Positions 6,366 through 40,768 of a stretch of 64,000 bases of DNA are shown here, one piece after another. Position numbers and translations under genes: made by a program. Position 1 is the first letter of the stretch. Each line of letters opens with the position of its first letter. Under the pieces are notes generated by a model. The model searched no databases. It saw only the letters and a program-made list of their open reading frames with translations, and had not been told where the DNA came from. This DNA comes from an uncultured bacterium (GTDB lineage Bacteria > Bacillota_I > Bacilli_A > RF39 > UBA660): contig CASEVQ010000002.1 of NCBI GenBank assembly GCA_949291455.1, positions 5,763-69,762 of the forward strand, given 5' to 3'.

Positions 6366-6398
6366 GTCCTTTCTTTAAATCTTTTTATTTTAATATTT

Positions 6399-7838
6399 CT
6401 ATAAACCAATTTCATAATCATCTTTGTCTTTATCTTTAGCTTTTCTATTGTCATAATCATAGTAATCATAATTAATAGCATCAGCTAGATTTTCATAATC
6501 TTCAACATAATCTTTAGGCTCTCTATCTAGTAGCTTATCAATAGCCTTACACATTTTTTTAAATAGTTTTTTCCATTTGTTAACTTCAACTTCAAGTTTT
6601 TCTTTTAAATTATCAATACTATTATTTAAAATATTAACAATACCTTTTAATTTATTAATCTCTTTACTTTGTTCTTTAATAGTAGCCTTTTGCTCAGTAA
6701 TAATTTTATCTCGTTTAATAATTTCTTCATTGTTTTTAAAACTGGTATTTTCTTTAGATAATTTCATTATAGTTAAATCTTTGTTTTTAATTTCACTTTG
6801 CTGAAAGATATTAACTTGCTCTAAACCTTTAGAATATTCTACGATTTTTTGAACGTCATTAGAGTTATAACCAACAATAGTTTTTTTAGGATTTAATATA
6901 TCTTTATTAACGGCTTTATTGGACTCTATAAGGGCATTTTTAGAGTTTTCTATCACTTTTAAGGTATTTTCCTTTTCTTGATTTAAAAGCTCTAATTCAG
7001 CCTTATTTTCCTCTATTTGGAACTCTAATTTAGTCTTGTGTTCTACATTAGCTCCAATATTACCTCTATCTAAATTAAAACCTCGTTCTGTAATAAACTT
7101 ATGAAAAGAGTTTTGTAATTTAGCATAAGAGTTTTGAGCTCCTCGTTGTTTCCAAAACTGGTCGTTATTTAAAAAGTTACCTTTAACTTTCTCATAAACG
7201 ATTTTACCTTTTTCATCTCTTAATATTTTAGGAACTAGTGTAGTATTACCATTTTTATTTTTAACTTCTTCTTTAATGACGTTTCCATTTTTATCTTTGA
7301 CGTAACATTTTCTTTTTACTTCATTTACAACTGGTAGAAAATATGCTTGTAGGTGAGGAGTATCTTCATCATAATGTATTTGAGCTAATATAATATTTTC
7401 TTCTCCAACATAATCTTTAAGAAACTCCATACAAGAGTCAAAGAAATAACTAACAGTTTGTGGTATATCTTCTTTAGATTTTATATAAGGAATTTTTACA
7501 CTTTGTCCTTTTTTATTTCCTGTTTTATAAGTTCTACCACTATCTATAAACTTCATACCTAGAGCTTCAAAAAACTCTGTTCCACTTGTAAAGGTAATTC
7601 CATTTAATAGGTTAGTGGAAGCTTTATTTAGATATTCTATATTTCTTTTCTTTAAGGTTTGTTTTACTTCTTGATACAGGTTTCTTTCGCTCATAGATAT
7701 ATATTCTACATTGAACTTTCGTCTTTCAATATCATAATTACCTGTACCTTTTCTATCTTTCATTTCAATACCAATGTTATATAAATCTTTTTGTTTGAAC
7801 TTTGTTTCTACTCGTACTACTTGTTTTCCATCATACAA
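6399..7838 (-). CDS. Mob/Pre (MOBV-family) relaxase
   Basis: AQIHYDEDTPHLQ motif, LQNSFHKFITERGFNLDRG, C-terminal coiled coil; RBS AGAAAGGAGG. Confidence 0.85.
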   Translation of the reverse strand: MYDGKQVVRVETKFKQKDLYNIGIEMKDRKGTGNYDIERRKFNVEYISMSERNLYQEVKQTLKKRNIEYLNKASTNLLNGITFTSGTEFFEALGMKFIDSGRTYKTGNKKGQSVKIPYIKSKEDIPQTVSYFFDSCMEFLKDYVGEENIILAQIHYDEDTPHLQAYFLPVVNEVKRKCYVKDKNGNVIKEEVKNKNGNTTLVPKILRDEKGKIVYEKVKGNFLNNDQFWKQRGAQNSYAKLQNSFHKFITERGFNLDRGNIGANVEHKTKLEFQIEENKAELELLNQEKENTLKVIENSKNALIESNKAVNKDILNPKKTIVGYNSNDVQKIVEYSKGLEQVNIFQQSEIKNKDLTIMKLSKENTSFKNNEEIIKRDKIITEQKATIKEQSKEINKLKGIVNILNNSIDNLKEKLEVEVNKWKKLFKKMCKAIDKLLDREPKDYVEDYENLADAINYDYYDYDNRKAKDKDKDDYEIGL

Positions 7839-7879
7839 TAAATGTTCCTCCTTTCTCTTAAAAGGTCATTTACGACCTA

Positions 7880-7980
7880 TCTCACTAGGGCATAGCCCAC
7901 TCGTGAGTTTAGGGAGTTCCCTAAAAACCCCTGTCTCGTTCTTCGCAGAATACCTAAACTTATGTAAAGGTATTCGCTAC
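7880..7980. other. candidate oriT / hairpin cluster upstream of mob
   Basis: GC-rich inverted repeats GGGC/GCCC within CTCAC/GTGAG, TTTAGGGA/TCCCTAAA and GAATACCT/AGGTATTC, immediately upstream of the relaxase. Confidence 0.45.
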
Positions 7981-8163
7981 AAACAAGATTAAAGAATAAC
8001 TATCTACAAGATACTTATTCTTTAAATAATTTTTTAAAGTAACTTTAAAAAATGTAAAAATATTCACTATCGCTACTTTCATTGAAACTCACGTTTCAGC
8101 AAAACGTACCTCGTTCATTTTTTACTAACTTTTTAGAAAAAAGCTACAAAAACTTTATGAAAA

Positions 8164-9117
8164 CTATTCGTTTTCATAAGTAGGTTCTTTATATATTGCA
8201 GTATATGTTCTTTCATTAGAAGTTCTTTTTTGCTCTATATAAAGTCCTTCTTTTTCTAAATTATCAATATTATTATTTAATAATTTACCAAATACAGATG
8301 GGGTAATAGGTAAGTTCAACTTACTTGTTATGTCCGAAGCAGTAAAGGTAAATTCTTTTTGTTTTATTGCATAATTTAGAAAGGTTAATATATTGTAATT
8401 TAAGTCCTCACTTTCAACTTCTGATAACTCAAATATTAGATTATCATTTCTTTTTAGAACTAGATCTAATCCCTCATAATCTCTACTTTCATAAGTGAAT
8501 ATAATTTTATTTTTAATATTAATATCTTGCTTTAAGGTTATCTTCCCATCAACAGAGCCATCAATAGCAGTGCTACCAAGAGAAGTATTGTTTTTATTTA
8601 AGTGATGAATAAGCAAGATAGTAAAATTATATTTTTTACAAATCTCTCTAAACTTTGGAATTACATATTGTCCCATATCTTGATAATTATTTAAGTCATA
8701 GCCATTATTCATATCAATACCACTAAACATATCAATGATTACAAATCTACCATTGTAGTCAGTAGCAAAGGTTTGAAAATCTAATTGTAAGTCCATAAGG
8801 TTTAGTTTTCTTTCGTTAGGACTTTGTTCTATTAAAGCAAAATTACTATCATCAAATTGTAGTTGCATTTTATCAATTCGACTCATAATTTGCGTGTAAT
8901 CCATTTCTGTGCTAATATATAAGACAGGAGATGGAGTAGTTCTAAATCCTAGAAATGGTTGTCCTGTTGCAATAGAGTTGGCAAGTTGTAGTGCTAATAG
9001 AGACTTACCAACTTTAGGTCTTGCAACAAGACAATATAATCCTTTGGACTTCATTAAGTTATCAACGATGAAGTCTTTTTTTGTGAAACTTTTTCTCATC
9101 TCACTTATAGTTTTCAT
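8164..9117 (-). CDS. AAA_25 / RepA-like replicative helicase-type ATPase
   Basis: Walker A ARPKVGKS, VLYISTE, VIID, LLIHHLNK, LGSTAI; C-terminal wHTH-like region. Confidence 0.8.
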   Translation of the reverse strand: MKTISEMRKSFTKKDFIVDNLMKSKGLYCLVARPKVGKSLLALQLANSIATGQPFLGFRTTPSPVLYISTEMDYTQIMSRIDKMQLQFDDSNFALIEQSPNERKLNLMDLQLDFQTFATDYNGRFVIIDMFSGIDMNNGYDLNNYQDMGQYVIPKFREICKKYNFTILLIHHLNKNNTSLGSTAIDGSVDGKITLKQDINIKNKIIFTYESRDYEGLDLVLKRNDNLIFELSEVESEDLNYNILTFLNYAIKQKEFTFTASDITSKLNLPITPSVFGKLLNNNIDNLEKEGLYIEQKRTSNERTYTAIYKEPTYENE

Positions 9118-15553: not shown

Positions 15554-16324
15554 TTAACTTTGCATGGTTTCAGAGACATCTGAATCCATTTTTAACTTAT
15601 CTTTTAAACGATATGAATTACCATTTATATTAATAATATATGAATGATGTAATAATCTATCTAAAATTGCATTAGCTAATGTTACATCATTAAATATTTC
15701 ATGCCATTTTCCAAATGGTTTATTTGTCGTTATTATAGTTGAATGTTTTTCATATCGCTTATTAATTAATTGAAATAACATATTCGCTCCATCCAAATCC
15801 ATTGGTAAAAATCCAACTTCATCTATTATCAACAATTTATATCTTGCATAATGGTTCAATCTATTTATAAATCTATTTTCAGATTGGGCTTTTTTTAAAT
15901 TAGCTATTAAATCATTACAATTTATAAAGTAAGTTGAATTCCTATTTTGGGCTGCTTCTATCCCTATGGATGTTGCTAAATGTGTTTTTCCCACTCCTGG
16001 TGAACCTACAAAAATAATGTTTTCATTATTTTCGATAAATCTTAAATTTTTAAAATCTAATATTTGTTCCTTATTTATTGTTGGCTGAAAAGAAAAATCA
16101 AAGTCATCAAATGTTTTCAAAAAAGGAAAATCAGCAGTTCTTACACAACCATAAATTGCTTTTTCGTTTCTTAATTCTATTTCTAGATTAGTTAATTCAT
16201 ATAATGCTTCTACAACATCTTTTTCTTTATTATTAATTAAATCTATATATTTATCTAAGTTTTGTTTTATCTTTTCTAATTGTAGTATTTCTAAATTATT
16301 TAGTAATTTTACATAGTTATTCAT
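15554..16324 (-). CDS. istB: IS21 transposition helper ATPase IstB
   Basis: GSPGVGKTHLA, LLIIDEVGF, ITTNK, AILDRLLHH, GNSYRLK. Confidence 0.96.
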   Translation of the reverse strand: MNNYVKLLNNLEILQLEKIKQNLDKYIDLINNKEKDVVEALYELTNLEIELRNEKAIYGCVRTADFPFLKTFDDFDFSFQPTINKEQILDFKNLRFIENNENIIFVGSPGVGKTHLATSIGIEAAQNRNSTYFINCNDLIANLKKAQSENRFINRLNHYARYKLLIIDEVGFLPMDLDGANMLFQLINKRYEKHSTIITTNKPFGKWHEIFNDVTLANAILDRLLHHSYIININGNSYRLKDKLKMDSDVSETMQS

Positions 16325-16327
16325 CTT

Positions 16328-17535
16328 TTATACCTCATTAAGTTTATTTATTAGTTCTAAATTCTTTTTAGAATTTTCATCTATTTCATTTTTATTTTTA
16401 TATTTTAATAAAGTCATTAACCCTTCAGAGTAGTGTTCATCCTTATAATTAATATATTTATTAGAAATATCATGTATAGTTATTAATTCTTTGTTATAAT
16501 ATACATAAAGTTTATTATTTTCTTCTCTTAAATTTAGAGTTCGATTAATAAACTTTATGGGTACTGAATATTTAGAACCTTTATAATAAAATAATGATTC
16601 GTTTGATACCTTAGTAAGTAAAGTATCATATAAATAATTATTCATTATTTTATTGTTAGGAAGAGGTTTTAAATATTCTTTTTCTTTTTGAAATAACATA
16701 ATTGGTGGCATACCAATTTTTTCATTTGTTTGTCTATTTACTTTTAGGTTTATTTCTTTAATTATATTTATTAATTCTTCCTCAGTTTCAAATTCACCAT
16801 TATATGGAATTAACCAACTAAGAAATCTATTACATGACTCATCTTTACCTTTAGTATATGCATGTCATGGCTTACATTTTTTAGGAATAAACCCCATATC
16901 TTTAGAGAACATAATAAAATCTTTATTGAATTCTTTCTTTTAGCATCTACTATACTACTCATGTTATCAGTTAAAGTTTCTTCTGAAACTCCACCAATGT
17001 ATTGAAATGTTTTAACTAAACATCTTTCAACATCTAATCTTGTTTTATATTTACTATATATAAATACATGTAATCTACTTGCACTTAAGGTAGAAGAAAA
17101 TATATTAAATTCAAAAATTTTCCCAGATTTACTAAACATTTTTATATCTTCTTTCCAATCAAATTGTAATTGTTTACCATATTCAGTTTCATATCTAGGA
17201 TGAAATTTATTTTTATTTTTATTGGTTTTAAATTCTTTAGAATATTTATAAAAATTAGAATAGTTACCTATATTATTATCTATCTCTTTAAAATATTCAT
17301 AAGTTCCTTTTATAGTAGAACCTGGTAATTCTAACTTAGTTTTAATATCTTCTTTATATTTATCTAATTTAGATTCTTTATTTCTATTTTTAGGTTTACC
17401 TTCATAGCCATTATCATATTTATTTACTGTTCTTCGATCACAATTATGTAATCTAGCTAACTCAGAATAATTTGGTTTCATATTTTCTGTTTTCAATATT
17501 ATCAACTCCTGTTTTAGTTTATTTAAATTCTTCAT
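16328..17535 (-). pseudogene. istA: IS21 transposase IstA, frameshifted and with a nonsense codon
   Basis: RYETEYGKQLQFDW and LTDNM motifs. Frameshift near 16940; the continuing frame KCKP*HAYTKGKDE has TGA at 16867-16865 and joins the 16328-16711 ORF. Confidence 0.9.
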
Positions 17536-17840
17536 GTTATACCTCCGTTTTAAACTAAAGTATAACAAAAAGAATGTACAAAAATGTTCATTTTTATATT
17601 ACATTTTTTGTACATTTTTATATTATCATTAACATTACGGCATTAATAATGATGATTTATTCAATTTATGCTATAATTCAAGAAAAACAAAAGTCAAAAT
17701 ATTATAAAAAGACTATATTATATGAAACAAATTATGATAAATATTTTACAATGGTAAGAAAGCAAAAAATAGTGGTTTTAAAAAAGAGACTACAACTACC
17801 GTTTTTAAAATTTTTTAGTTAAAATAAAGAGGTTAATAAG

Positions 17841-18089
17841 ATGGAAAGAATACAATTGCAGTATATTCTTTTTGGTATGTGTACTATATCAGGTCTTGTC
17901 TTTATAATATATCTTTTAAAAAATAAAGATTAGGGATTAGATTATGATGAAATTATTGCAATGATGAAAGAACAAACAGAAGATAATTTAAATGTATTAA
18001 AAAGAAAAGATAAAGAGATTAATGAAATTGAAAAAGAAATATTAATTTGTAAAAAAGAATTAGGAATAAAACCTTTTAAAAAAGGTTGA
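17841..18089 (+). pseudogene. small TM + coiled-coil protein with in-frame TAG
   Basis: RBS AAGAGG, ATG 17841, TAG at 17931-17933; the frame stays open to TGA 18089. Confidence 0.45.
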
Positions 18090-18125
18090 AAAAGGTTAAA
18101 AAAGCAAAAAATTACGCTATTGTTA

Positions 18126-18242
18126 TTGCCTTTTTAAAAATTATATATATAATAAATTCAAATTGTTGGGTGTGTTTGCCCACTTTATATTATATATTGA
18201 TTTGAAAGGTGGCAAGCACGTGTGTTTTTTGCCCCCTTTTTT
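18126..18242 (+). promoter_or_regulatory. promoter and structured leader of the rSAM operon
   Basis: TTGCCT-N16-TATAAT (18126-18153); stem GTGTTTGCCCACTTT / AAAGGTGGCAAGCAC; GCCCCC followed by a T-run. Confidence 0.5.
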
Positions 18243-18305
18243 AGTACACAACATAGGAAACTATGTATTTATAAAATTTTTTAAAGAGTGAAAGGAGGAT
18301 TTTGT

Positions 18306-18440
18306 ATGAAGAAGATGGCTATTAAAAATGACATTGTAAAAAATTTAAAGACAAAACTTTCAAATCAAAAAATCAAAATTTCTTTTGGTAATAAGATAGG
18401 ATTGGGTTACGACGGTTGCGGAACCCATACTCACAAATAA
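18306..18440 (+). CDS. putative RiPP precursor peptide (44 aa, not in the ORF track)
   Basis: RBS GAAAGGAGG; MKKMAIKNDIVKNLKTKLSNQKIKISFGNKIGLGYDGCGTHTHK; directly upstream of the rSAM gene. Confidence 0.8.
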   Translation: MKKMAIKNDIVKNLKTKLSNQKIKISFGNKIGLGYDGCGTHTHK

Positions 18441-18491
18441 TTTTTTAAAATCAACCTCCTATGTTGTGTAATTATTTATTGGAGGTAAGAT

Positions 18492-20093
18492 ATGAGAAGT
18501 CCATGGTTAAGTCGTGAATACGAAAAATCTAAAGATGTTATAGTTACAAAAATTAATGAAAATTATGAATTAAAAAATGAAAATACTAATACAACGATAG
18601 TATTAAATGAAGATGAATATCAAAAATATGAAAACAACTTATTTAATGAAATAGAGTGGGAAAGATTATTTTTAAAAGGGCTAGCAGTTGACAAAAATTG
18701 TAAAGATTTAGTGATTGATAGTTCTTTTGATGTAAGTAATAAAAAATTTATAAAATCTAATAAAGTGGAAAATTTTCTATTAAAAGTTGGAAACGAAAAA
18801 TTTGAAATACTAATAAATCCTGAATTAGGATCTTGGATGTCTTTTAGTGAAAAAGAATATCGAAGATACGAAAATAATGAATTGACACAAGAGGAATGGT
18901 TAAGTTTATTTATTAGAGGCTTAGCAGAAGATAAGGAACACACTGAAGTTGATTTTGATTTTCCACTTCCAGCCGATTATCCAAGTGTAATAGTAGTTAA
19001 TATTACTACTGGTTGTAATTTGAGATGTAAATACTGTTTTGCTGATTGTGGTCCATTTAAAGGAGAAAATATGACAGAGGATGTAATGGATGCAACAATT
19101 GATAGTATGTTATCTATGCCACAAGTAAAAGTTATTACATTTGAATTTCAAGGTGGAGAAGCTTCTACTAATGTTCCAGGCATGAGAAAATTTATTGAAA
19201 AAGTAGAATCCGTAAAATCTAAATATGATAAATTAGTAAAATATAGAACAGAAATTAATTGCATTTTAGTAACACAAGAACTTATAGATTTAGTAAAAGA
19301 ATTTAATGTAAGTGTAGGGGTAAGTTTAGATGGACCAAAAGAAATGACTGATCAAACTAGAGTTGATATTAATGGTAATGGTGCTTTTGATAGAATTGAA
19401 AAAGGAATTAAGAAGTTAAGAGATAATGGTATTTATATTGATGGAGCCGTTTGTACAATAGGACAACATAACGTTCATTATCCAAGACAATTAATGGAAT
19501 ATTTTGATAAAGTCGGAATGAACTTTAAACCAAGACCAGTAAATATTCTAGGTAGAGAAAAAGAAAATAATTTAACTACAAAACCTGGAGAATGGGCTAA
19601 ATGTTTTAAAGAAATGCATCAAATGAAAGATGAAATAGATGTTGAAAACTTTTCTGTTCATATATTTGAAGAAAACGTTTATACACCGATTAGAGATTAT
19701 ATTTGTTTAAGATATCCATGTGGAGCTGCAAGAGAATTAGTTTCAGTTAATCCAAATGGTGATGTATTTCCTTGCGATGGATTTAAAGGTGAAAAGAAAT
19801 TTGTTATGGGAAATGTTTTAAATGAAAAAATAGAAGATATGTTGAAGAAACCTGAAATAATTAAATTAAGAAATAGAACTGCTGAAACAATAGAAAAATG
19901 TAGTAAATGTAGGTTTAGAGGAATGTGTTGTTCTTGTTGTTATTCTGCTTTTGGAAAATTTGGCGATATTTATAGAGAAGATCCACATTGTTCTGATAGA
20001 AGACAAATGTATATTTATTTAATGCAGGCATGGATTCAAGAAAATGTTTTGAATAAGGAATTAAAGAATGAAAAACAATCAGTTGTTAGTTGA
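18492..20093 (+). CDS. radical SAM/SPASM peptide maturase with duplicated N-terminal domain
   Basis: CNLRCKYC, FQGGE, VSLDG; SPASM cysteines PCGA...PCD...CSKCRFRGMCCSCC...C. Confidence 0.92.
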   Translation: MRSPWLSREYEKSKDVIVTKINENYELKNENTNTTIVLNEDEYQKYENNLFNEIEWERLFLKGLAVDKNCKDLVIDSSFDVSNKKFIKSNKVENFLLKVGNEKFEILINPELGSWMSFSEKEYRRYENNELTQEEWLSLFIRGLAEDKEHTEVDFDFPLPADYPSVIVVNITTGCNLRCKYCFADCGPFKGENMTEDVMDATIDSMLSMPQVKVITFEFQGGEASTNVPGMRKFIEKVESVKSKYDKLVKYRTEINCILVTQELIDLVKEFNVSVGVSLDGPKEMTDQTRVDINGNGAFDRIEKGIKKLRDNGIYIDGAVCTIGQHNVHYPRQLMEYFDKVGMNFKPRPVNILGREKENNLTTKPGEWAKCFKEMHQMKDEIDVENFSVHIFEENVYTPIRDYICLRYPCGAARELVSVNPNGDVFPCDGFKGEKKFVMGNVLNEKIEDMLKKPEIIKLRNRTAETIEKCSKCRFRGMCCSCCYSAFGKFGDIYREDPHCSDRRQMYIYLMQAWIQENVLNKELKNEKQSVVS

Positions 20094-20697
20094 AAGTCAA
20101 GAAACAGGTAAAACTACATATTTATTTAATGAGATTAATAAATTAATTTCAGATGGTTTTGGAATTATAGTGTTAGATTCGGCTACTGAACACGAAGATA
20201 AATCATTATTAAAGAAAGTAATTAATAATAATAGTAATTCTGTTATTATAGGTATGCACGATGAAAAGCAAGTTGTTTTAGGTAATATACCTATAAGCGA
20301 TTTTATTAAAAATTTTATGGATTACTTTCCTTTTCGTGATGTTATAAAAAATAAAGATAAAATAATATGTTTTGATTTATCATTCTTTTTAGAAAAAGGT
20401 CATGAAGTTTATGAAGAAACGAATGATATAAAACAATATCGTTATTATAGAAATTTATATAATAATTTATCACAACAAATCGCATTATCATTAATTTTAA
20501 TGGAAAAATGTAGTATAATTAAAGATAGAATTGTTGTTATGGATGAGATAGAATTTCCTATTACAGACTATGATATTAGTATTTTGCAAAATAATTTGAA
20601 TTTTTTAGCGGCAGTGCATCCAGAAAATGCTTTTGGAACTTTTTATGAAAGTTTTGATAAAATTAAGTTTAAAAAATATCAAAAAAGAAAGGATTGA
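20068..20697 (+). CDS. divergent P-loop NTPase-like protein (HerA/VirB4-like fragment)
   Basis: LLVESQETGKT (degenerate Walker A), IIVLDSATEH, IVVMDE (Walker B-like). Confidence 0.5.
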   Translation: MKNNQLLVESQETGKTTYLFNEINKLISDGFGIIVLDSATEHEDKSLLKKVINNNSNSVIIGMHDEKQVVLGNIPISDFIKNFMDYFPFRDVIKNKDKIICFDLSFFLEKGHEVYEETNDIKQYRYYRNLYNNLSQQIALSLILMEKCSIIKDRIVVMDEIEFPITDYDISILQNNLNFLAAVHPENAFGTFYESFDKIKFKKYQKRKD

Positions 20698-22772
20698 TAA
20701 AGATGAATATTACCCCAGAACAATTAGAACAAGAAAAGCAATATTTAGAAAAGACATTAGAAGTAATAAAATCTCTTATCGAACAAGATGATATATCAAT
20801 ACAAAATAAAATTAGTGCTATTAATGAGATGAAAAGATACGTTTGGGAAAATAATGCAATGCTTGATGATGCTGAAATTGCGAGTGGAATGTATGATGTA
20901 AATAATGATGTAGGCTATACAAATGAAAATATAAAAAAATTACAAAAATTAAAAAAGTCATTAATCAATCCATATTTTGGTAGAGTTGATTTTGAAAAAG
21001 ATGGATTCACAGATTCAATATATATTGGAATAAATGGAATTATGAAAGATTTGGATTTCTATGTTTTTGATTGGAGGTCTCCAGTAGCTAGTCTTTTTTA
21101 TAATTATGGAATTGGACCTGCTTCTTATGAAGCTCCAGCTGGGATAATAAGTGGAAATGTAAATTTAAAAAGACAATATAAAATAAACGGGGAAACAATT
21201 GAAAGATGTTTTAATAGTGATATAAATATTGATGATGAATATTTACAAGAAATTTTATCGAATTCTTCATCTGATAAAATGACTAATATTGTCAATACTA
21301 TTCAAAAAGAACAAAATGAAATTATTAGAAATATAGTTGATAAGTATTTGATAGTTCAAGGTATTGCTGGAAGTGGAAAAACATCAGTAGCTTTACATAG
21401 AATTGCTTATTTACTTTATAAGGAAAAAAATCTTACTTCTAATAATGTATTAATATTTTCACCTAATGAAGTCTTTTCTGAATATATTTCGGATGTATTA
21501 CCTGGTTTAGGTGAAGATAATGTTTTACAAACTACGTTTAGTGATTTTGCTTGTTCATATATTAGAGATTATAAAGAAATAGAAAGTTTTACAGCATTTA
21601 TTGAAAGATATTATAAAGCTGAAGTTGTTGATGAAGAAAAATTCAAAAGCACAAAATATAAATTATCTAATGAATTTAAGAATTTTTTAGATGATTATAT
21701 TGAAAAAATTAAAAATCATATATCCTTTAATAAAGGCGTAATGATTAATAATAAAGAAATTACTAAAAATGAATTAAATCAATTGTTAAAAGATAGATAT
21801 TCAAGGTTACCATTTTTTAGTAGATTAGATGCTATTTCTGAATATATATGTGATTCAAATAATATATCATATAAAAAACATGGTAAAACTGTAAAAGATA
21901 AATTGTGTTTACTGTTAAATGATAGTTTAGATATAAAAAATATTTATTCTAGCATTATATGTTCGGACGAGTTTAAAATTAATTCAGGTATAAGCCAAAA
22001 TGAAACATTTAAAAATAGTAAAATTTTAAAATATGAGGATTTATTACCATTAATGTATTTATATTTTGAACTAAATGGTTATCCAAACGGTAATATGATA
22101 AAACATGTAATTATAGATGAAGCACAAGACTATTCTTTATTACAATTTGAAATGTTAAAGAAAATATTTGATAGAGCATCCTTTACTATTTTAGGAGATA
22201 TTCATCAAACTATAAATCCTTATTATATATATAATAACTTAAATGACATAAATTCTATTTTTAATCAAAAAGGTAGATACATTGAACTTTCTAAAACCTA
22301 TCGTTCCAGTGAAGAAATAATAAATTTTACAAATCATATATTAGGAATTAACAATGCTTGTTCTGTAAGAAAAAGTAATTCAATTCCAGTTGTTTTAAGA
22401 GACGTTACACGTGAACAAGTAATAGAACAATTAATTGATGATATAAAGCAAATGAAATCTAATGGAATGAAACGTATTGCTATTATTACAAAAAACAATG
22501 CAGAAACAATTGATTTATATGAAAGTTTGAGAGAACAACTAACTGATATAAATTTAGTAGATGCCGAAGGTAAAAAAACAATTGGGAATACAGTTATATT
22601 GCCATCTTATATTTCAAAAGGTTTAGAATTTGATGGTGTAATTGCATATACAGATAAAGAACACTTATATCAAGAAAAAGATAAATATTTATTCTATGTA
22701 GTTTGTACGAGAGCACAACATAGTTTAACTGTATATAATCAAAAGAAATTAGTTTTAGAAAGAAAAAAATAA
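20694..22772 (+). CDS. helD: HelD-like (RNA polymerase recycling) SF1/UvrD ATPase
   Basis: NPYFGRVDF, DWRSPVASLFY, IVNTIQKEQNEIIR, QGIAGSGKTSVALHRIAYLLY, DEAQD, YRSSEEI, KGLEFD and TRAQH are HelD-family signatures. Confidence 0.85.
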   Translation: MIKMNITPEQLEQEKQYLEKTLEVIKSLIEQDDISIQNKISAINEMKRYVWENNAMLDDAEIASGMYDVNNDVGYTNENIKKLQKLKKSLINPYFGRVDFEKDGFTDSIYIGINGIMKDLDFYVFDWRSPVASLFYNYGIGPASYEAPAGIISGNVNLKRQYKINGETIERCFNSDINIDDEYLQEILSNSSSDKMTNIVNTIQKEQNEIIRNIVDKYLIVQGIAGSGKTSVALHRIAYLLYKEKNLTSNNVLIFSPNEVFSEYISDVLPGLGEDNVLQTTFSDFACSYIRDYKEIESFTAFIERYYKAEVVDEEKFKSTKYKLSNEFKNFLDDYIEKIKNHISFNKGVMINNKEITKNELNQLLKDRYSRLPFFSRLDAISEYICDSNNISYKKHGKTVKDKLCLLLNDSLDIKNIYSSIICSDEFKINSGISQNETFKNSKILKYEDLLPLMYLYFELNGYPNGNMIKHVIIDEAQDYSLLQFEMLKKIFDRASFTILGDIHQTINPYYIYNNLNDINSIFNQKGRYIELSKTYRSSEEIINFTNHILGINNACSVRKSNSIPVVLRDVTREQVIEQLIDDIKQMKSNGMKRIAIITKNNAETIDLYESLREQLTDINLVDAEGKKTIGNTVILPSYISKGLEFDGVIAYTDKEHLYQEKDKYLFYVVCTRAQHSLTVYNQKKLVLERKK

Positions 22773-22776
22773 TTAT

Positions 22777-23307
22777 ATGAATAATATTTTATGTGGAAGT
22801 TCTTGTGTTAAATATATTTTAAATGACTTTTGTATAAATACAGAACAATTAAATTTAAAAATGACTTGGATTACCGAACTAGCAATTGCCCTAAAAAATA
22901 GTGGAATTAAGAATATAAGTATTTTGTGTTACAAAAGCAATTTATATTATGATTATAAAAATAATCCTAATATTGATTTGAGTTTTAATGGCTTTCATTA
23001 TATAGAAGAATGTATAAAAAATAATATTCCTATTAATGAAACAAAATTAAGTAAGATGGAATTGCTAAAAGAGGTAAAGCAAAATAAATTTATTGTCTTA
23101 TGTGTAGAATCATCAGTATTTAATAACATAAATATGAATGGTGGTCATTTTATAGTTTTAAATGGAATAGATAATAACAAAATAAGAATAATAAATCCTA
23201 TAAAAAATAAATATGAATATAAATTAGAAAATGTTGAAAATATTATTAAATATTGTGAAAACTATGGTTCTTGGAGAATATTAATTAAGGAGGATAACAA
23301 TGATTAA
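22777..23307 (+). CDS. stand-alone C39-like cysteine peptidase
   Basis: N-terminal CGSSC (catalytic Cys), GGHFIVL (His), IINP. Confidence 0.7.
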   Translation: MNNILCGSSCVKYILNDFCINTEQLNLKMTWITELAIALKNSGIKNISILCYKSNLYYDYKNNPNIDLSFNGFHYIEECIKNNIPINETKLSKMELLKEVKQNKFIVLCVESSVFNNINMNGGHFIVLNGIDNNKIRIINPIKNKYEYKLENVENIIKYCENYGSWRILIKEDNND

Positions 23308-23857
23308 AGTTATTGCATTTGATTTAGTTGGAGTTTTAGTTACAGAAAGAGATATTGACTTAACAACAGAAGAAGATAAGCTTGAAAGAATGTTTGGAAG
23401 TAATATCAATGATTCTGATTATTTAATGGAAGCAAGAAAAATAATTGATAAAGATTCAATTTTAATGAGAACGACCGAAGAATTAATTGATAAATTATAT
23501 AAAGTAAAAGATGAGAATTTATTTAGAAAAATAAAGGAAAAATATAATAATGTAAAGATTATTATAGCAACTAATCATGTATCATTTGTTAGAAATTTTA
23601 TAGGTGAAACTTTAGGGGTGGATTATTTGGATGATGTTTTAATTTCTGCTGAAATTCATAAAGTTAAACCTAATCCCGATTTTTATAATCATATTTTAGA
23701 TAAATTCGATTTAAAACCTGAAGAATTATTATTTTTAGATGACAATATTGATAATATTGATGGTGCAGAAAAGTTAGGTATAAATACTATTAAAGTAAAT
23801 AAAGACGCAGATCTATATAGCGAAATAATTAAATTTTTAGATTATAATTTCAAATAA
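23300..23857 (+). CDS. HAD-superfamily hydrolase (IA)
   Basis: IAFDLVGVL, ATN, KPNPDFY, FLDDNIDNIDGA. Confidence 0.9.
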   Translation: MIKVIAFDLVGVLVTERDIDLTTEEDKLERMFGSNINDSDYLMEARKIIDKDSILMRTTEELIDKLYKVKDENLFRKIKEKYNNVKIIIATNHVSFVRNFIGETLGVDYLDDVLISAEIHKVKPNPDFYNHILDKFDLKPEELLFLDDNIDNIDGAEKLGINTIKVNKDADLYSEIIKFLDYNFK

Positions 23858-23900
23858 AAATACCTAGTAAGCAAAAATAGTGCCTACTAAGTTTTCGTTT

Positions 23901-24293
23901 TTATATTTTTAAAGAATAGACATAATCAAATATTAATAAATTTTGATTAATGGTATTATTAATATTTTCATCATTAAAGTCAGTTTCATATATATTAAAT
24001 AACATTTCAATAGAAAATTTTTTCTTTTCAATTTTTGATAATTCCATATATTTAGCAGATAAGAATAATAATTTTTTATGTTTACCAAAATTAACAATAA
24101 CTTTGTTATAATTTGAATCCAATTTACTTAATATATCTTTTAAAAGACAAATTATATTATTTATGTCATAGTCAACTCTGAAATTGATATTTTCTAATAT
24201 ATTAACTGTTAATCTGACTTTATCAATATTATTTAAATTGTTAAAATTTTCTAGTAAATTTAATACCTTATATGTATTGTCGCTTAATAACAT
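23901..24293 (-). CDS. hypothetical helical protein
   Basis: RBS GAAAGGAAGG before ATG 24293. Confidence 0.6.
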   Translation of the reverse strand: MLLSDNTYKVLNLLENFNNLNNIDKVRLTVNILENINFRVDYDINNIICLLKDILSKLDSNYNKVIVNFGKHKKLLFLSAKYMELSKIEKKKFSIEMLFNIYETDFNDENINNTINQNLLIFDYVYSLKI

Positions 24294-24434
24294 TTTTACC
24301 TTCCTTTCAACTACCCATTCAACCACCCAAACTTGAGATACTGTTTAAATTACTTTAAATTTATTTAAAATAAAAGTCTTATTTTTAAAGGGTTTAGAGG
24401 GTTAATATTTATAAGAGTGCATGATATAAGATTT

Positions 24435-24533
24435 CACCATGAAGGACATCGTCGAGAGACGGTTTCCACTTTTTTTATACGTGTTTGCATTATAACACAC
24501 AAAAGTACACAACTTTTATAAATGAATAAGTTT
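24435..24533 (+). repeat. att core + terminator + arm-like module (copy 2, degenerate core)
   Basis: CACCATGAAGG followed by about 90 bp nearly identical to 13720-13808. Confidence 0.85.
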
Positions 24534-25023
24534 GAGGTTATATCAATTTAATTAGTCAGTTATAAATACTGAAATATGTTAAACACATATTCTTTTAATT
24601 GTAATCTCAATCACGTTATAATTCTAACAAACAGTAAATGTTTGTCAAATTTTCTTTTTTAAATTATCTTGAAATAGTAGAACGATGAAATTCTAAGTAA
24701 TTAGCAATATAAGAATTATTAAATAATTTTTGGCCATTCTTATTTTTTTGACTAAATAAAGCTTGAATTTTAAAATGGTCAGATTCTTTTAAATGATAAT
24801 AATGATTTTTTTTCTTTTTAATGTATTATTTGATTTAGACATATGAATTTTCATTTCTTTTTTAGCGAAGAGTTATTATAGATTATTCATATTTCTTTTT
24901 CAATGCATATTTGTTGCACTTCAAATTTAAATTAACATGTTTACAGTTTTTTGACAAAAATAGGGTTTTATGTTATTATAAACACTATTAAAAGGCAATT
25001 ATTTGCTATTTGGAGAGGGTAAT

Positions 25024-26814
25024 ATGGAAAGTAAATTTTGGAGAAAAAGTCCTATTAAGAAATTTAATACAGAGCAAACGATGTATTCATTAGTTACAGA
25101 TGAAGCAAAAAATGATTTAGACTTAGATGCAACAGGCTTTATGGGAAACTCTATGACATATAAAGAATTATTTGAGTCTGCTGAAGATTTAGCTAAATCT
25201 TTTAATGCCATGGGTGTTAAAGAAGGGGATAATGTTGCAATTTTAACTATAAGTATGCCTTTAGTTCAACAATGTTTACTATCATTAAGCAAAATTGGAG
25301 CAACAATGTCTTGGATTGATTTAAGAGTAAAAGAAAAAGACTTAATTAATTATATTAATAATGGTAACTGTAAAGCTGTTGTTGTATTTGAAGATCTATT
25401 GCCTTTAATTGAAAAAATATCTGGTTATATTAATGCTGAAAGAGTTATTGTATGCTCTCCAAAGGAATATCTTAAACCAGCAATAAAAGTTCTTGCTAGT
25501 TTAAAAGATAAAAAAGAAGGTAAAAAAATAGTTATGCCTTCGGATGATAGATTTGTTAAGTTATCTGATTTTATTAAAGAGGGAAAACATACTGGTAGTG
25601 TAAGTACTGCTGATTTTAAAATAGATAGGCCATCACTTATTGTTCAATCAAGTGGTAGTACAGGAAAACCAAAACAAATAGTTCATACAGAAAGAAACTT
25701 TAATTCAGAAGTTCAAAAAATGGCTTATGTTGATCTACCTTTCTATAAAGGTGATACAATGCATGTTTCAGTACCACCATTTATAATATATGGACTTGCT
25801 AATTCAATCTATGCTAGTATGGCATTTACAATGAAAGCCGAAATGACTCCGTTTGTAGATGAAAATACTGTTTATAATGATTTGGGTAAATTTGATATGT
25901 CTTTAGCTGCGCCATTACATTATAGATATATATTCGAACAATTAAATAATTTAAGAAAAGATATTGATCAATTACAAAAGAATAGTGATTTAAAATCTAA
26001 AAGTGAATTAAGAAAAAAATTAAAAGAATTAAATAGAGTATTAAATGGATTTAATAGAGCAAAAGTATTTGTTTCTGGCGGAGATAAAATAAGTGCTGAA
26101 GAATTAATAGAAATGCAACAAGCGTTTGATACAACTATAGTTAATGGTTATGGAAACAATGAATGTTTAGGTGCAACAATTGTTTCTCCAAGATTTGCAA
26201 ATAAACCTGGTAGCATTGGTGTTCCAATGCATGGAGTTGATATTAAGTTTGTTAATCCAGATACAGGGGAAGAAGCAAAAGCTGGTGAATTAGGTGAATT
26301 GTATGTTTCATCTGATAACTTATTTGTAGAATACTTAAATAATCCAGAAGAGACTTCAAAGATTAAAGTTACCGATGAAAATGGCAAGCAATGGGTTAAA
26401 ACTGGTGATTTATGTATAATGGACAGTGAAGGTTATATTATTCCAAAAGGTAGAAATAGAAGATTAATTAGAAAAGATGCCTTTAAAATAGCACCTGATA
26501 CTATAGAAGAAGTAATAATATCTTTACCTTATGTTAAAGATTGTGTAGTTGTAGGTGTTGATGATGAAAAATTCACAAGTGTTCCTATGGCATTTATTGA
26601 ATTAGAAAAAAATATAGATATAAATGATGTTTATGCTGATATTGAAAAGAAATGTGTTGAAGAATTACCAGATTATGAAATACCATCATATTTCGAACAA
26701 ATAGAAGAAATGCCTTATACTTCAAATGGAAAGCACGATTTTAGAAGACTTGAAGAATTAGGAAATAATTTTGTTAAGGAAAGAAAAGGAATAATTAAAG
26801 TTTTAAAAAAATAA
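25024..26814 (+). CDS. AMP-binding acyl-CoA synthetase / adenylate-forming enzyme
   Basis: SSGSTGKPK, GYGNNE, TGD, GR..RLI, NGK motifs. Confidence 0.92.
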   Translation: MESKFWRKSPIKKFNTEQTMYSLVTDEAKNDLDLDATGFMGNSMTYKELFESAEDLAKSFNAMGVKEGDNVAILTISMPLVQQCLLSLSKIGATMSWIDLRVKEKDLINYINNGNCKAVVVFEDLLPLIEKISGYINAERVIVCSPKEYLKPAIKVLASLKDKKEGKKIVMPSDDRFVKLSDFIKEGKHTGSVSTADFKIDRPSLIVQSSGSTGKPKQIVHTERNFNSEVQKMAYVDLPFYKGDTMHVSVPPFIIYGLANSIYASMAFTMKAEMTPFVDENTVYNDLGKFDMSLAAPLHYRYIFEQLNNLRKDIDQLQKNSDLKSKSELRKKLKELNRVLNGFNRAKVFVSGGDKISAEELIEMQQAFDTTIVNGYGNNECLGATIVSPRFANKPGSIGVPMHGVDIKFVNPDTGEEAKAGELGELYVSSDNLFVEYLNNPEETSKIKVTDENGKQWVKTGDLCIMDSEGYIIPKGRNRRLIRKDAFKIAPDTIEEVIISLPYVKDCVVVGVDDEKFTSVPMAFIELEKNIDINDVYADIEKKCVEELPDYEIPSYFEQIEEMPYTSNGKHDFRRLEELGNNFVKERKGIIKVLKK

Positions 26815-26886
26815 TAAATTGAAAACTGTAATGCTAAATTATAGTTTTTTTGTGCTATAATCGTATATAATAGGATGTGATGTTAG

Positions 26887-28803
26887 ATGAGCGGAACAAT
26901 ATTTTTAACTGTGTCGGCATTAATTTATACTATTGCAACTACAATTCTTTTCTTTAGGAAAGATACAATAAACAAATTAGAAAATAGAATATTTAAAAAA
27001 TTACTATTGGCTTCTATTACTTCTATGCTTGTTGAATTACTAATAATTATAACTGTAAATTATGGAATTATAGGAACTATAGTTCAAAAAACATTTTTGG
27101 TATGTTTAGTATTATGGCTTTCAATTTTTATGCTCTATACATTTGCTATTACTGTATTTGATGATAAAGAATCAGAAGAAAAAAACATAGAAAAATTTAA
27201 AGTACCGTATATTTTATTCGCTATTGCAAATTTAATTATTTATGGATTTATATATGCATTACCTATAGAATTTGTTTCAATTTCCGATAATGTTAAATAT
27301 ACAGGTGGCCCTTCTGTTAATGTTGTATATGTTGTTTTAGGAGTATATGTAACATTTATGGCTATTCTAGTTTTAAAGAATATTAAAAATATGCATAAGA
27401 AAGGTTATATTCCTATAATTGGTTTTATAATATTAATGGTTACTTCTGGTATAATTCAAAAAACACATCCAGAAATGCTATTAACAAATGCCGTCTTTGG
27501 CTTTATAATTTATTTAATGTATCATACAATTGAAAATCCTGATTTAAAAATGTTAAGACAAATGGAACTAGCTAAGGATCAAGCTGAACGAGCAAATCGT
27601 GCAAAATCAGATTTTTTATCAAGTATGTCTCATGAAATTAGAACGCCACTTAATGCTATCGTTGGCTTTAGCGAAGATATTCAAAGTCGTAAAAGTACAG
27701 CTGATCCTGAAATAGTAGAAGATGCAGATTATATCATGGAAGCATCTAAAACATTACTTGAAATTGTAGGAAATATTCTTGATATAAATAAAATTGAAAG
27801 TAATAAGATGGAAATAACTGAAGTAAAATACAATTACAAAGAAACAATTGAACAACTTTCCAAAATAGACGCAATTAGAATTGGAGAAAAAAATATTAAT
27901 TTTAAGATTAATTTAGCACCAGATATTCCTTATGAATTAGTTGGCGATAAAACTCATATAAAGGAGATAGTTAATAACCTACTTACTAATGCAATTAAAT
28001 ATACTGATGAAGGAGAAATTGAATTAAGTACAAGATGCATAAATAAAGGTAATGTTTGTAATTTAATTATTAGTGTAAGAGATACTGGTAGAGGAATAAA
28101 AGCAGAAAATATTAATAAATTATTTACTAAATTTGAAAGATTAGATGCTGAAAAGAATTCTACTACAGAAGGGACTGGTTTAGGATTAGCAATAACTAAA
28201 GCACTTGTTGATATGATGGGTGGAAAAATTAATGTTCAATCTCAATTTGGAAAAGGCAGTTTATTTGTAGTTCAAATACCACAAAAAATTAGTCAAATGA
28301 CTAATCCTAATCAAATAGTAGAAACACCTATTAAAGATCAAATAAAGGTTGGACAACAACTAGTTCAAGAAATATCTAAAGTAGAAAATATTGCAACTAA
28401 GTTTAGTGGGAAAAAAATACTAATAGTAGATGATAATAAATTAAATATTAAGGTCGCTCGTAGAGCATTAGATGGATTCAATTTTGAAATTGATGAATGC
28501 TATGATGGGCAAGAATGTTTAAATAAAGTTGTTAAAGGAAATGAATATGATTTAATTTTAATGGACATTATGATGCCTAATATGAGTGGAGAAACTGCTA
28601 TAGCAAAATTAAAAGAAAAAACTAACTTTAATATTCCTATAATCGCTTTAACTGCTGATGCAGTTGTAGGCGCTAGAGAAAAATATTTAAGTGAAGGGTT
28701 TGTTGATTATATTGTTAAACCATTTAACAAACAACAAATAAAAGAAAAATTAGACATTATATTTGGAAGTAGTAATTCAGCACAAGAAAATAAAATGGAA
28801 TAA
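26887..28803 (+). CDS. hybrid sensor histidine kinase (multi-TM, HisKA, HATPase, receiver)
   Basis: FLSSMSHEIRTPLNAI, NLLTNAIKYT, DTGRG, GTGLGL; receiver VDDN...MDIMMP...KP. Confidence 0.95.
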   Translation: MSGTIFLTVSALIYTIATTILFFRKDTINKLENRIFKKLLLASITSMLVELLIIITVNYGIIGTIVQKTFLVCLVLWLSIFMLYTFAITVFDDKESEEKNIEKFKVPYILFAIANLIIYGFIYALPIEFVSISDNVKYTGGPSVNVVYVVLGVYVTFMAILVLKNIKNMHKKGYIPIIGFIILMVTSGIIQKTHPEMLLTNAVFGFIIYLMYHTIENPDLKMLRQMELAKDQAERANRAKSDFLSSMSHEIRTPLNAIVGFSEDIQSRKSTADPEIVEDADYIMEASKTLLEIVGNILDINKIESNKMEITEVKYNYKETIEQLSKIDAIRIGEKNINFKINLAPDIPYELVGDKTHIKEIVNNLLTNAIKYTDEGEIELSTRCINKGNVCNLIISVRDTGRGIKAENINKLFTKFERLDAEKNSTTEGTGLGLAITKALVDMMGGKINVQSQFGKGSLFVVQIPQKISQMTNPNQIVETPIKDQIKVGQQLVQEISKVENIATKFSGKKILIVDDNKLNIKVARRALDGFNFEIDECYDGQECLNKVVKGNEYDLILMDIMMPNMSGETAIAKLKEKTNFNIPIIALTADAVVGAREKYLSEGFVDYIVKPFNKQQIKEKLDIIFGSSNSAQENKME

Positions 28804-33767: not shown

Positions 33768-36700
33768 ATGCCGGTAAAGAAAAGCGTGCTATATAGTAAA
33801 TTGTGGGATAGTTGTAATACATTAAGAAGTAAAGGTGGCATGGATGCTACTCAATATAAAGATTATGTATTAATTGTTTTATTCATGAAAGTTATTACAG
33901 ATAAGTATTATCATCAAAATGATTCTTTAATAGATGTTCCAGATGATGCAAATTTCAATACGATGATTTCTTTAAAAGGAAAGAAAAATATTGGAGAAGA
34001 GTTTAATAAAATACTCGCAAAGATAGCTGAAGAAAATGATTTACAAAATGTTATTGATGTTGTAGATTTTAATGATGAAAATAAACTTGGTAAAGGTAAG
34101 GATATGATAGAAGCATTAACTGGATTAGTCGAAGTATTTCAAGATCCCGAATTAGATTTTAGTAATAACAGAGCAGATGATAATGATGTATTAGGTGATG
34201 CTTATGAATACTTAATGAAAAAGTTTGCTTCAGAGGCAGGAAAAAGTAAAGGACAGTTCTATACTCCATCTGAAGTATCTAGAATTATGTCAAAGATTTT
34301 AAAAATATCTGAATCTAAAAAGAGCCCAATTGAAGTTTATGATATGACGTGTGGTTCAGGATCACTATTAATTAAAGCTGGTGATGAAACACCTGAAAAT
34401 TTAAAAGTGTACTTGTATGGTCAAGAAAAAGATACTAATACTGCTGGCCTTTGCGTTATGAATATGTTTTTACATGGAAATGCAACTGCACAAATAAAAG
34501 TCGGAAATACTTTAACAAATCCTCAGTTCTTAGAAAATAGAAAAGTAAGAACGTTTGATTTTTGTGTTGCCAACCCACCATTTTCAGTAAAAAAATGGAA
34601 TACAGATTTAACTACAGATAATAATTATGACAGATTTACTGGTTTTGGAACTCCCCCAAACAATTGTGGTGATTATGCATTTTTACTTCATATGTTAAAA
34701 TCTATGGATCCAGTAACTGGTAGAGGTGCCATTATTCTTCCTCATGGAGTTTTATTCAGAGGTGGCCAAGAAGAATTAATTAGAAAGAATTTATTAAAGA
34801 GCGGATTTATTGAGGGAATTATAGGATTACCATCTAACTTATTTTATGGTACAGGTATCCCTGCTTGTATAATAATCCTCGATAAAAAAGATGCTAATGA
34901 TAGAAAAAATGTTTTCATGATTGATGCAAGTAAATTTTTCGTTAAAGATGGTAATAAAAATAGGTTAAGAGAAGAAGATATTAGAAAGATTACTGATACA
35001 TATTTAAACAAAACTGAAATTGAACATTATTCAAAAAATGTGTTAATAACTGATATTGAAAAAGAAGAATACAATTTAAATATTCCAAGATACATTGATT
35101 CTTCTGATGAAGAAGTTATTCAGGATATTAAGGCTCATTTGTTTGGTGGCATTCCAAAGGCAAACATTGATAAATTGTCTGAATATTGGGATATAGCACC
35201 TAAACTAAAAAATAAATTATTTAATAATAATGAAAGAGATGGTTATTTAGATTTGATGGTTGATAAAGATTCTATTAATGAAGAAATAACTAACTCTGAA
35301 GAATTTATTAATTATTCTGTAGAATTGAGTAAAAAAGTTAATTCATGGGAACAAGATAATAAAAACGTATTATATTCAATATCTAAAAACAGTAGAGCAA
35401 AAGATATAATAAATATTTTAGCTGATACAATTTTGAAAGATTTTACTGATGGTAAATTAATTGACAAATATGAAGCATATGAATTTTTAATGGAATATTA
35501 TAATGACACAATGAAAGATGACATTTATTTAATTATTGAAAACGGTTGGATTCCCAAAATAGTTTACGCACAAGATAAAAAAGGAAAAATAAAAGAGAAC
35601 GAATTTGATTCTGACTTATTACCAAAAGAAATAGTTATAAATGAATATTTTAAGAATGAAAATGATAATATCGTAAAATTAAATAATGACTTAAACGATT
35701 TGTCTCAAGAATTTGATTCAATGGTAGAAGAAAACACTGGTGATGAGGAAATCTTTAATGATGAAGATAAAGTTAGTGAAAAATTGATTAAAGATAAAAT
35801 TAAAGAAGAGTCTGATGAAAATATTGCTATATTAAACAAATTGCTTGAAAATTTATCTTTTCAAAAAGAAATAAAGAATAATATAAAAAAATATCAAAAA
35901 GCATTAAATATATTAATTATCGATAAATATAATTCGCTTGATGAAGATACTTCAAAAGATTTAATAATTATTAAAAAATGGTTTAAATCAATTGAAAGAA
36001 CATTCAATGATAAATATGAAGACTTGATTTATGACTTATCAAATAAAATAATAAATGAATATGAAAATTATGAGAACACGTTAAGTCAACTTTCTGAAAA
36101 AACATCTAATTTAGAATCTTTGGTGTTAAAAGATTTAGAGAGGATGGATTTTGAATCCAACAAGCAAAAATTATTAAACAACAAGAAACGAAATGGAAAA
36201 TGGAAAAATGTAAAAATTGGAGATATAGGCGTTTTTGATGGTAATGGTGTTGATAAAACAATCAATGAAAAAGAAAAAAAAGTTCGCCTATTGAATTATA
36301 TGGATATAATGCATAATGATTTTATTTATGATAATATGAGTAAACATTTTGTAACAGCCTCTGAAAGAAAATATAATAAATGCTTAGTAAAAAAAGGGGA
36401 TATATTTTTAACTCCATCTTCAGAAACCAGAAAAGATATTGGTGTCAGTGCTGTTGCTTTAGAAGACAGTGATGATCTTGTGTACAGTTATCATATTGTA
36501 AGGTTTAGACCAACTATTGATATGGATATGAAGTTTAGAGCTTATTTATTTCAGAATCAAAAATTTTTAAATCAAGCATCTAAATATTGTGAGGGTAGTG
36601 GTAAAAGATATGTTTGTTCAAATAAAAAATTTGCATCATTTGAATTGGAAATACCTTTGGATATAAATGAACAAGCTGAAATTGGAAGAGTTTTATATGA

Positions 36701-39951: not shown

Positions 39952-39957
39952 ATACAA

Positions 39958-40659: not shown

Positions 40660-40768
40660 TGAATAAGCAGTAATAAATACAAAAATGTGCTATAATTATA
40701 CATAGATAATAGAGTTACATTTCATTTAATGATGGAGTGTGCTCTATTTTTTGATTGGAGGTGTTAAA

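Follow-up and report, generated by a model that had tools for sequence, protein, structure and literature searches.

A radical SAM peptide operon linked to HelD

The window analyzed here is a 64,000-nt stretch of contig CASEVQ010000002.1 (positions 5,763 to 69,762; assembly GCA_949291455.1) from an uncultured bacterium, and its positions 18306-23857 carry a six-gene operon encoding a short precursor peptide, a radical S-adenosylmethionine (rSAM)/SPASM enzyme and four further proteins, one of which is HelD. We conclude that the operon is real, that it encodes an undescribed rSAM peptide system and that its link to HelD is unusual and well supported. Our best account of its function, held tentatively and at somewhat less than even confidence, is that a small cross-linked His/Tyr peptide acts inside the cell on RNA polymerase and that HelD reverses this action. 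No description of the operon, or of a link between HelD and peptides that are ribosomally synthesized and then modified after translation (RiPPs), was found in the literature covered; subscription journals and supplements were mostly outside it, and genome-mining tables could list the cluster.

All six genes were confirmed on the + strand by open reading frame calls and Pfam/NCBIfam models, at the positions given in a preliminary description made from the sequence. (Positions without a locus name are those of the window, and the operon genes and leader elements all lie on the + strand.) The precursor gene (18306..18440, 44 aa) has a strong ribosome-binding site. It is followed by the rSAM/SPASM maturase (18492..20093, 533 aa; PF04055 and PF13186), a minimal RecA-fold P-loop nucleoside triphosphatase (NTPase) with no significant Pfam or NCBIfam family (20068..20697, 209 aa), a small class I HelD (20694..22772, 692 aa; NF041464; start probably ATG at 20703), a stand-alone C39-like cysteine peptidase (22777..23307, 176 aa; PF03412, 24 bits vs a cut-off of 22) and a HAD-family phosphatase (23300..23857, 185 aa; PF00702 and PF13419). 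The preliminary description had the last five genes overlapping or abutting and saw no exporter, and both statements hold: the junctions are -26, -4, +4 and -8 nt, and no exporter is conserved across the related loci. Membrane segments are absent from all six proteins (the highest 19-residue hydropathy is 1.28), and the nearest ABC ATPase within the window is 8 kb downstream.

Conservation of the precursor core

The precursor consists of a basic leader and the C-terminal core GYDGCGTHTHK (about 18405-18437). The core pattern G-Y-x-x-x-G-x-H-x-H, corresponding to G34, Y35, G39, H41 and H43, is invariant in 25/25 aligned precursors, so that the conserved precursor on which the earlier proposal depended is indeed present at homologous rSAM loci. 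This includes loci that we term archaeal-type because genes flanking two of them (L056 and L065) match archaeal models; L046, L047, L051 and L054 have no assignment. The core Cys is replaced by Phe in 3 of the 25 precursors, all three archaeal-type. Since the His and Tyr residues are invariant and the Cys can be replaced, His/Tyr chemistry is favored over a thioether; the conserved core Cys donor of sactipeptides and ranthipeptides is missing in these three. The aromatic-X-X pattern with a beta-carbon at the third position is found in the invariant His41-x-His43, whereas Tyr35-Asp-Gly lacks the beta-carbon. Among 16 close loci, all 58 differences in the 11 core codons are synonymous (0 non-synonymous), which indicates purifying selection on the precursor; in the leader codons of the same loci, 161 are synonymous and 68 non-synonymous. 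The leader has no double-glycine site.

In two loci (L056:110-574 and L059:1816-2253), the core lies near the N-terminus of a protein of ~150 aa whose long C-terminal extension belongs to no known family. A connection between the core Thr and the P-loop gene, suggested by L044, which has neither, was rejected because L056 has the Thr with no P-loop gene nearby.

The rSAM enzyme belongs to a discrete subfamily

The maturase contains the CxxxCxxC motif and the SPASM cysteines. No curated model was passed by its subfamily. The resemblance to His-Xaa-Ser (HXS) maturases noted in the preliminary description stood in part: the EFQGGE and LRxPCGA motifs are present and HxsB (TIGR03978) is the best NCBIfam model, but its score is 166 against a cut-off of 370. 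The cyclophane-synthase models were likewise not passed (score/cut-off: GrrM, 88/310; YhhB, 85/445; AmcB, 117/425). The subfamily is sharply bounded, with eight representatives above 375 bits and the next sequence at 265. The nearest solved sequence is 5WGG, which we take to be the SCIFF ranthipeptide maturase CteB. In this lineage a small N-terminal domain is duplicated (internal repeat 38% identical, E 7e-11), and this duplicated domain may be a candidate resembling a RiPP recognition element; sequence tests for such an element gave an atlas lead to PqqD at 0.88 in only 11% of members and no match among PDB sequences. By analogy with known families, the enzyme would cross-link the precursor core. 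The subfamily is undescribed and spans gut Bacilli, Lentisphaeria and archaeal-type contigs.

HelD is retained with the rSAM gene across lineages

The operon was found in 65 public loci forming 31 groups. A genome collection yielded 18 loci, of which 17 are true relatives (L019 was dropped as spurious), and a metagenome scan yielded 56, of which 48 belong to the family and eight distant ones (L068-L075, 21-26% identity) were dropped. In the genome collection, the precursor is present in 17/17 loci, and the P-loop gene and HelD in all 15 that extend past the rSAM gene. Across the 65 loci, HelD lies beside the rSAM gene in 42. Six of the other 23 are on contigs ending within 800 nt of the rSAM gene, and 17 are basal or unplaced; in one of the six short-contig cases, the genome carries the remaining operon on another contig. 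In the rSAM tree, a single branch with 99% support holds all HelD loci, 21/21 with context and two rows without. Thus the co-conservation of helD that the preliminary description had put up for checking stands for these loci and this branch but does not extend to the 17 basal or unplaced ones. Among 251 Lentisphaeria genomes, the rSAM enzyme and HelD each occur in one, the same genome, where they are adjacent. Gene order varies among lineages, with HelD retained.

The operon HelDs do not group together in the tree: a single clade was rejected by the approximately unbiased (AU) test (p-AU 6e-47), in which the long branch L055 was left out and L078, L080, P0125 and P0127 had been added to the group after the tree was seen. 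Near-duplicates were left out of the trees, and the HelD tree is unrooted. The operon HelDs of this lineage group with stand-alone HelDs of the same lineage, and distant operon HelDs group with HelDs named from Clostridia and Bacteroidota. Because the operon HelDs are not one clade, the tree suggests, and we favor, that the operon HelD was exchanged for a host-type HelD and yet was kept. A second HelD-like gene was found in 8/17 operon-bearing genomes, which bears out that the operon HelD is distinct from a chromosomal one; in the host genome (G000; 1.09 Mb, 88% complete), the operon HelD is the only one found.

Stand-alone helD genes in L086-L089, L092, L094 and L099-L101 share a short leader with a conserved TGACG element and mostly a small terminator-like hairpin before the start.

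The operon HelD is of class I

The operon HelD scored 502 bits with NF041464 (cut-off, 419), which places it in class I, and failed the HelR models NF041254 and NF041258 (138.5/750 and 139/1100). HelR, which the preliminary description had named alongside HelD, is accordingly dropped as an identity. Its best PDB match is the HelD of Bacillus subtilis (6WVK, E 2e-108), and Walker A and B are intact in all 55 aligned rows. An acidic D-D-x-E patch is located at residues 58-61, for which the arm-tip residues D56, D57 and E60 of B. subtilis served as reference, although the alignment to 6WVK begins only at residue 74. At 692 aa, the protein falls within the scale of the 680-720 aa isoforms. When convergent sense and antisense promoters upstream, as in the rifampicin dual-promoter control of helD, were looked for, one sense and two antisense consensus sites were seen, compared with 4.6 expected by chance. 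Binding and recycling of RNA polymerase by the operon HelD is predicted from its family.

A second, unrelated rSAM cassette carries HelD

Seven genomes have HelDs near the operon clade, and in four of them (G320, G281, G052 and G053) a second cassette was found, comprising a precursor whose core is rich in Cys, a 420-aa rSAM enzyme, a PP2C phosphatase, an APH kinase and HelD (L143:4994-12474, L145:6080-12780, L147:7712-12984 and L149:7617-12753). Since its rSAM enzyme is only about 25% identical to that of the operon, two unrelated cassettes share HelD. The second cassette has a clear kinase/phosphatase pair, whereas in the operon such a pair is putative and would consist of the P-loop and HAD proteins. 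A broader proposal, which we regard as rather unlikely, is that HelD marks a hidden class of RNA polymerase-directed RiPPs, in which unrelated rSAM cassettes each recruited and retained a host-compatible HelD and a kinase/phosphatase-type switch and serve as intracellular transcription brakes (for dormancy, abortive infection or control of self-poisoning). If so, the small HelD isoforms would gain a natural purpose beyond rifamycins.

In L143, HelD stands on both sides of the second cassette, and L145 has an additional ThiF-family gene. In L144 (4692-9497), HelD comes immediately after an ATP-grasp protein fused to an Asp-Glu racemase, and a methyltransferase.

A structured leader RNA precedes the precursor gene

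The region 18126-18258 contains a regulatory leader, an element beyond the preliminary description. It begins with a sigma-A-type promoter candidate (18126..18153) that matches 10/12 consensus positions, a count no better than in shuffles; the -35 and -10 elements are at one position across 16 aligned leaders. Next comes a predicted transcription attenuator (18167..18242), which folds as a 5' hairpin (18167-18182), an antiterminator (18172-18180 pairing with 18211-18219) and a terminator with a U-run (18206-18242). The antiterminator is 95% paired in 12 leaders, with two-sided changes at 3 pairs and 0/500 shuffles scoring as high. The terminator is 88% paired, yet its covariation is not above that of column shuffles (165/500). 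A long-range 14-bp helix, with its 5' arm at 18245..18258 and its 3' arm at 18457-18470 (region 18454..18486), encloses the precursor gene; it is 98% paired in 19 loci, with two-sided changes at 6/14 pairs and, again, 0/500 shuffles as high. As the sequences are related, the shuffle figures for the leader are not probabilities. Several G-U changes indicate that the long helix is an RNA rather than a DNA element. Its 3' arm overlaps a weak local hairpin (18454-18459 with 18481-18486, z -1.5) that can mask the rSAM ribosome-binding site.

No Rfam match was found in 17500-25100. With a covariance model of the leader, no further copy came up in G000, nor upstream of the stand-alone helD genes, the second cassette or the distant loci. 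The leader is predicted to be a new, conserved structured RNA with an attenuator. One contig of run X1 has 17 other bases in place of the attenuator (18163-18238), a natural variant without it.

P-loop, peptidase, HAD and other accessory proteins

The G-K and D-E residues of the P-loop protein are invariant in 27 homologues, and this lineage has lost the first Walker A Gly. The structure model is confident (pLDDT 92.5), and its fold matches are tied (Z 11.2 for VirB4, 10.9 for CobA, 10.8 for HerA and 10.4 for TrwB); Foldseek with the model gave no match at E <= 0.001. By this model, the protein is a stripped RecA-type core. It has the RecA-type core with Walker A and B that is characteristic of HerA/FtsK/VirB4 proteins, and its homologues have no conserved Arg after Walker B, the position presumably taken by an arginine finger; the protein is only 209 aa long. 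A thymidine-kinase identity was ranked low (Z 7.0). The P-loop gene is beside the rSAM gene from this lineage through the archaeal-type loci, and its product is fused to a C39-like domain in L020, L031 and L055.

Cys6 and His124 of the C39-like peptidase are invariant in 25/25 homologues, 17 of which match PF03412. The membrane and ABC domains of a peptidase-containing transporter are absent from the operon, and the peptidase is thus not part of a transporter. In motif I of the HAD protein, the first Asp is kept and the second is replaced. Different branches use two HAD families, the basal loci carrying the other one. Accessory genes across the loci include thymidylate-kinase-like, nucleotidyltransferase, CYTH, NUDIX, APH kinase, glycosyltransferase, methyltransferase, Fic and SufS/SufU genes, with kinases, nucleotidyltransferases and phosphoesterases appearing repeatedly. 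Because transferases recur together with phosphoesterases, we infer a phosphate- or nucleotide-based switch.

Several locus variants were seen. A tetrapyrrole-methylase-family gene ends the operon in 16 loci (L004, L006, L008, L055 and others) and is absent from G000. L018, L023, L029, L031, L032 and L043 additionally carry SufS, SufU fused to a nucleotidyltransferase, and a thymidylate-kinase-LRR protein, often joined to the peptidase. In the archaeal-type loci L049, L050, L052, L053 and L065, a Fic-HEAT protein and mostly an esterase replace the C39-like peptidase and HelD.

The operon is rare and mobile

The operon occurs in 5/401 genomes of the host order and in 1/251 Lentisphaeria genomes. 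A phylum-level search found the rSAM enzyme in 1/299 genomes, the host's own, in a sample drawn mostly from other small-genome lineages and with two genomes unscored; the corresponding HelD count of 0/299 reflects too strict a threshold and is uninformative. No relative was found among viral contigs, and plasmid and phage collections gave only distant rSAM enzymes, at most 28% identical. The Lentisphaeria operon sits on a low-GC island (0.36 vs about 0.46). We conclude that the operon is rare and mobile.

The nearest relatives of the host genome are titled uncultured Bacilli. The window itself is an accessory region. Integrase, Mob relaxase and AAA replication genes beside recG, and an IS21 element with its transposase gene in two pieces, are located at 5154-9117 and 15554-17568. 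Type I restriction genes with a YgjP-like gene (33768-40659), a 1211-aa protein without a Pfam match (40739-44374) and a GmrSD-domain protein (55118-56821) lie further along. Just 3' of the operon (25003-28803), an AMP-binding enzyme is followed by a hybrid histidine kinase; these genes are not conserved with the operon.

Proposed function and alternatives

In the scheme that we tentatively favor, the peptide would remain inside the cell, where it would slow bacterial RNA polymerase or block it. The rSAM enzyme would cross-link the core, most simply joining His41 to residue 43 as in His triceptides, or acting via Tyr35, and the C39-like peptidase, judging from known families, would remove the leader. 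The P-loop NTPase might add, and the HAD protein remove, a phosphate or nucleotide group that switches peptide activity, a step proposed more weakly. HelD would free the inhibited polymerase, so that the cell is protected from its own peptide or recovers after the peptide has arrested transcription. The attenuator would hold the operon off until a signal arrives, and the long helix would determine how much precursor is made relative to the enzymes. Class I HelD reaches into RNA polymerase via its N-terminal arm and relieves rifampicin inhibition, according to PMC12802891. Since class I HelD has this activity and the operon HelD is retained more firmly than cargo would be, an intracellular antidote is the role that we favor for it. 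The unrelated cassette with HelD, the second HelD in 8/17 genomes and the recurring kinase, nucleotidyltransferase and phosphoesterase genes also count in favor of the scheme.

Several points weigh against this scheme. RNA polymerase as the target is something we infer, and both the modification of the peptide and its binding to polymerase are putative; for the P-loop protein, a kinase role is guessed from its fold and context. No HelD was seen in any of the 17 loci that are basal or unplaced, although just two of them, L050 and L065, have long context on both sides. Most of these loci keep a closely similar core, and the operon can therefore exist without HelD. HelD-like genes are common anyway in the host order, where they were matched in 189/401 genomes (at least 150 places at E <= 1e-136), and HelD is known to move horizontally, as PMC8655204 states. 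The HelDs of L078, L080 and L081 are nested in the operon clade and now stand alone, so that escape from the operon could explain part of the HelD tree. No residue pattern clearly marking the operon HelDs as specialized was seen, and the leader RNA structures are confined to this lineage.

The basal loci without HelD, and a HelD that is both common and mobile, would suit an account in which HelD is cargo under shared regulation, serving general stress or rifamycin tolerance, and the peptide has an unrelated intracellular job such as handling a metal through His-x-His and Cys. Both His residues are invariant, and a His-cross-linked RiPP that binds copper is known (PMC10206099). We consider this account unlikely, though it deserves attention. 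HelD has stayed despite rearranged gene order and its own apparent replacement, an unrelated Cys-type cassette also carries it, and in Lentisphaeria, which otherwise show none, it enters only with the operon. For a metal ligand, the Phe in place of Cys in 3/25 precursors is unfavorable, and no metal transporter or regulator is among the shared neighbors of the operon loci.

Two further possibilities appear improbable, and to a similar degree. The peptide might be an exported antibacterial that leaves by a transporter encoded elsewhere or by lysis and hits the RNA polymerase of competitors, with HelD as self-immunity. Lasso peptides that inhibit RNA polymerase offer a precedent, ubonodin reportedly being one; an extra HelD copy resembles a self-resistance gene, and with a bacterial polymerase as the target, archaeal-type producers could do without HelD. 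The loci, however, have ABC ATPase genes nearby in only 3/31 groups, at variable positions, and a peptidase outside any transporter, a leader without a double-glycine site and proteins without membrane segments fit export poorly. Alternatively, the operon might be an HXS-related anti-phage system whose modified peptide stops infection without acting through host RNA polymerase. HxsB being the best model for the maturase is in line with this, as are the Fic protein of archaeal-type loci and the integrase/Mob, IS21, type I restriction and GmrSD genes of the window, and HXS is itself an anti-phage system with a His-motif effector (PMC13128918). Yet a second rSAM enzyme, HxsD and a periplasmic effector are missing, PADLOC identified no specific defense system, only generic rSAM and helicase hits, and many operon loci sit among housekeeping genes.

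Why bacteria keep several HelD isoforms is described as unclear in PMC8655204, and a HelD moving together with peptide-modification cassettes allows this question to be tested directly. If the peptide inhibits RNA polymerase, helD could serve in genome mining to mark new transcription inhibitors, and the His/Tyr core would be a new scaffold. Should polymerase not be the target, the operon still provides an undescribed rSAM subfamily, a core of 10 residues that is nearly invariant and a structured leader RNA that is new.

Comparison with known systems

The operon resembles the HxsABCD system (PMC13128918) in that HxsB is the best-scoring model for its enzyme and the substrate has a His-centered motif. 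A His-Xaa-Ser identity was nevertheless rejected: the single rSAM enzyme is below the HxsB cut-off, neither HxsC nor HxsD occurs among the operon proteins and shared neighbors, and the multi-HxS effector is missing. The HXS effector described there is exported, binds peptidoglycan and has five HxS repeats, whereas the operon peptide is 44 aa long with one H-x-H; the operon in turn carries HelD, an NTPase, a peptidase and a HAD protein. The gene set thus differs, as the preliminary description had stated.

The His triceptides HtkA/HtkB and HaaA/HaaB (PMC11499958) are similar in that an aromatic-X-X motif, here His-Thr-His, ends a short precursor beside an rSAM/SPASM enzyme, and the operon His-x-His fits the triceptide pattern given there for HtkB, with the cross-link putative here. 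They differ in that the operon enzyme reaches none of the cyclophane-synthase cut-offs, the motif has His in third place, a Tyr is invariant as well and the companion genes are others. CteB (5WGG) shares the combination of rSAM and SPASM domains with an N-terminal extension; the core Cys of the operon peptide is not invariant, however, which makes a thioether unlikely as the family-wide chemistry.

Self-resistance by kinase/phosphatase pairs is known for streptomycin and viomycin, and lasso peptides inhibit RNA polymerase. The operon may be compared with these, by analogy only, as a biosynthetic cluster that would combine a phospho-switch with a gene protecting the target; it differs in having neither lasso machinery nor an exporter and in its cytoplasmic phosphatase. 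The operon HelD itself resembles the class I HelD of B. subtilis (6WVK) and the small isoforms (PMC8655204 and PMC12802891) in passing the family model, in its ATPase motifs and a candidate acidic arm tip, and in size. What sets it apart, in a way that the sections of these two papers covered here do not report, is its translational coupling inside a peptide-modification operon behind a predicted attenuator.

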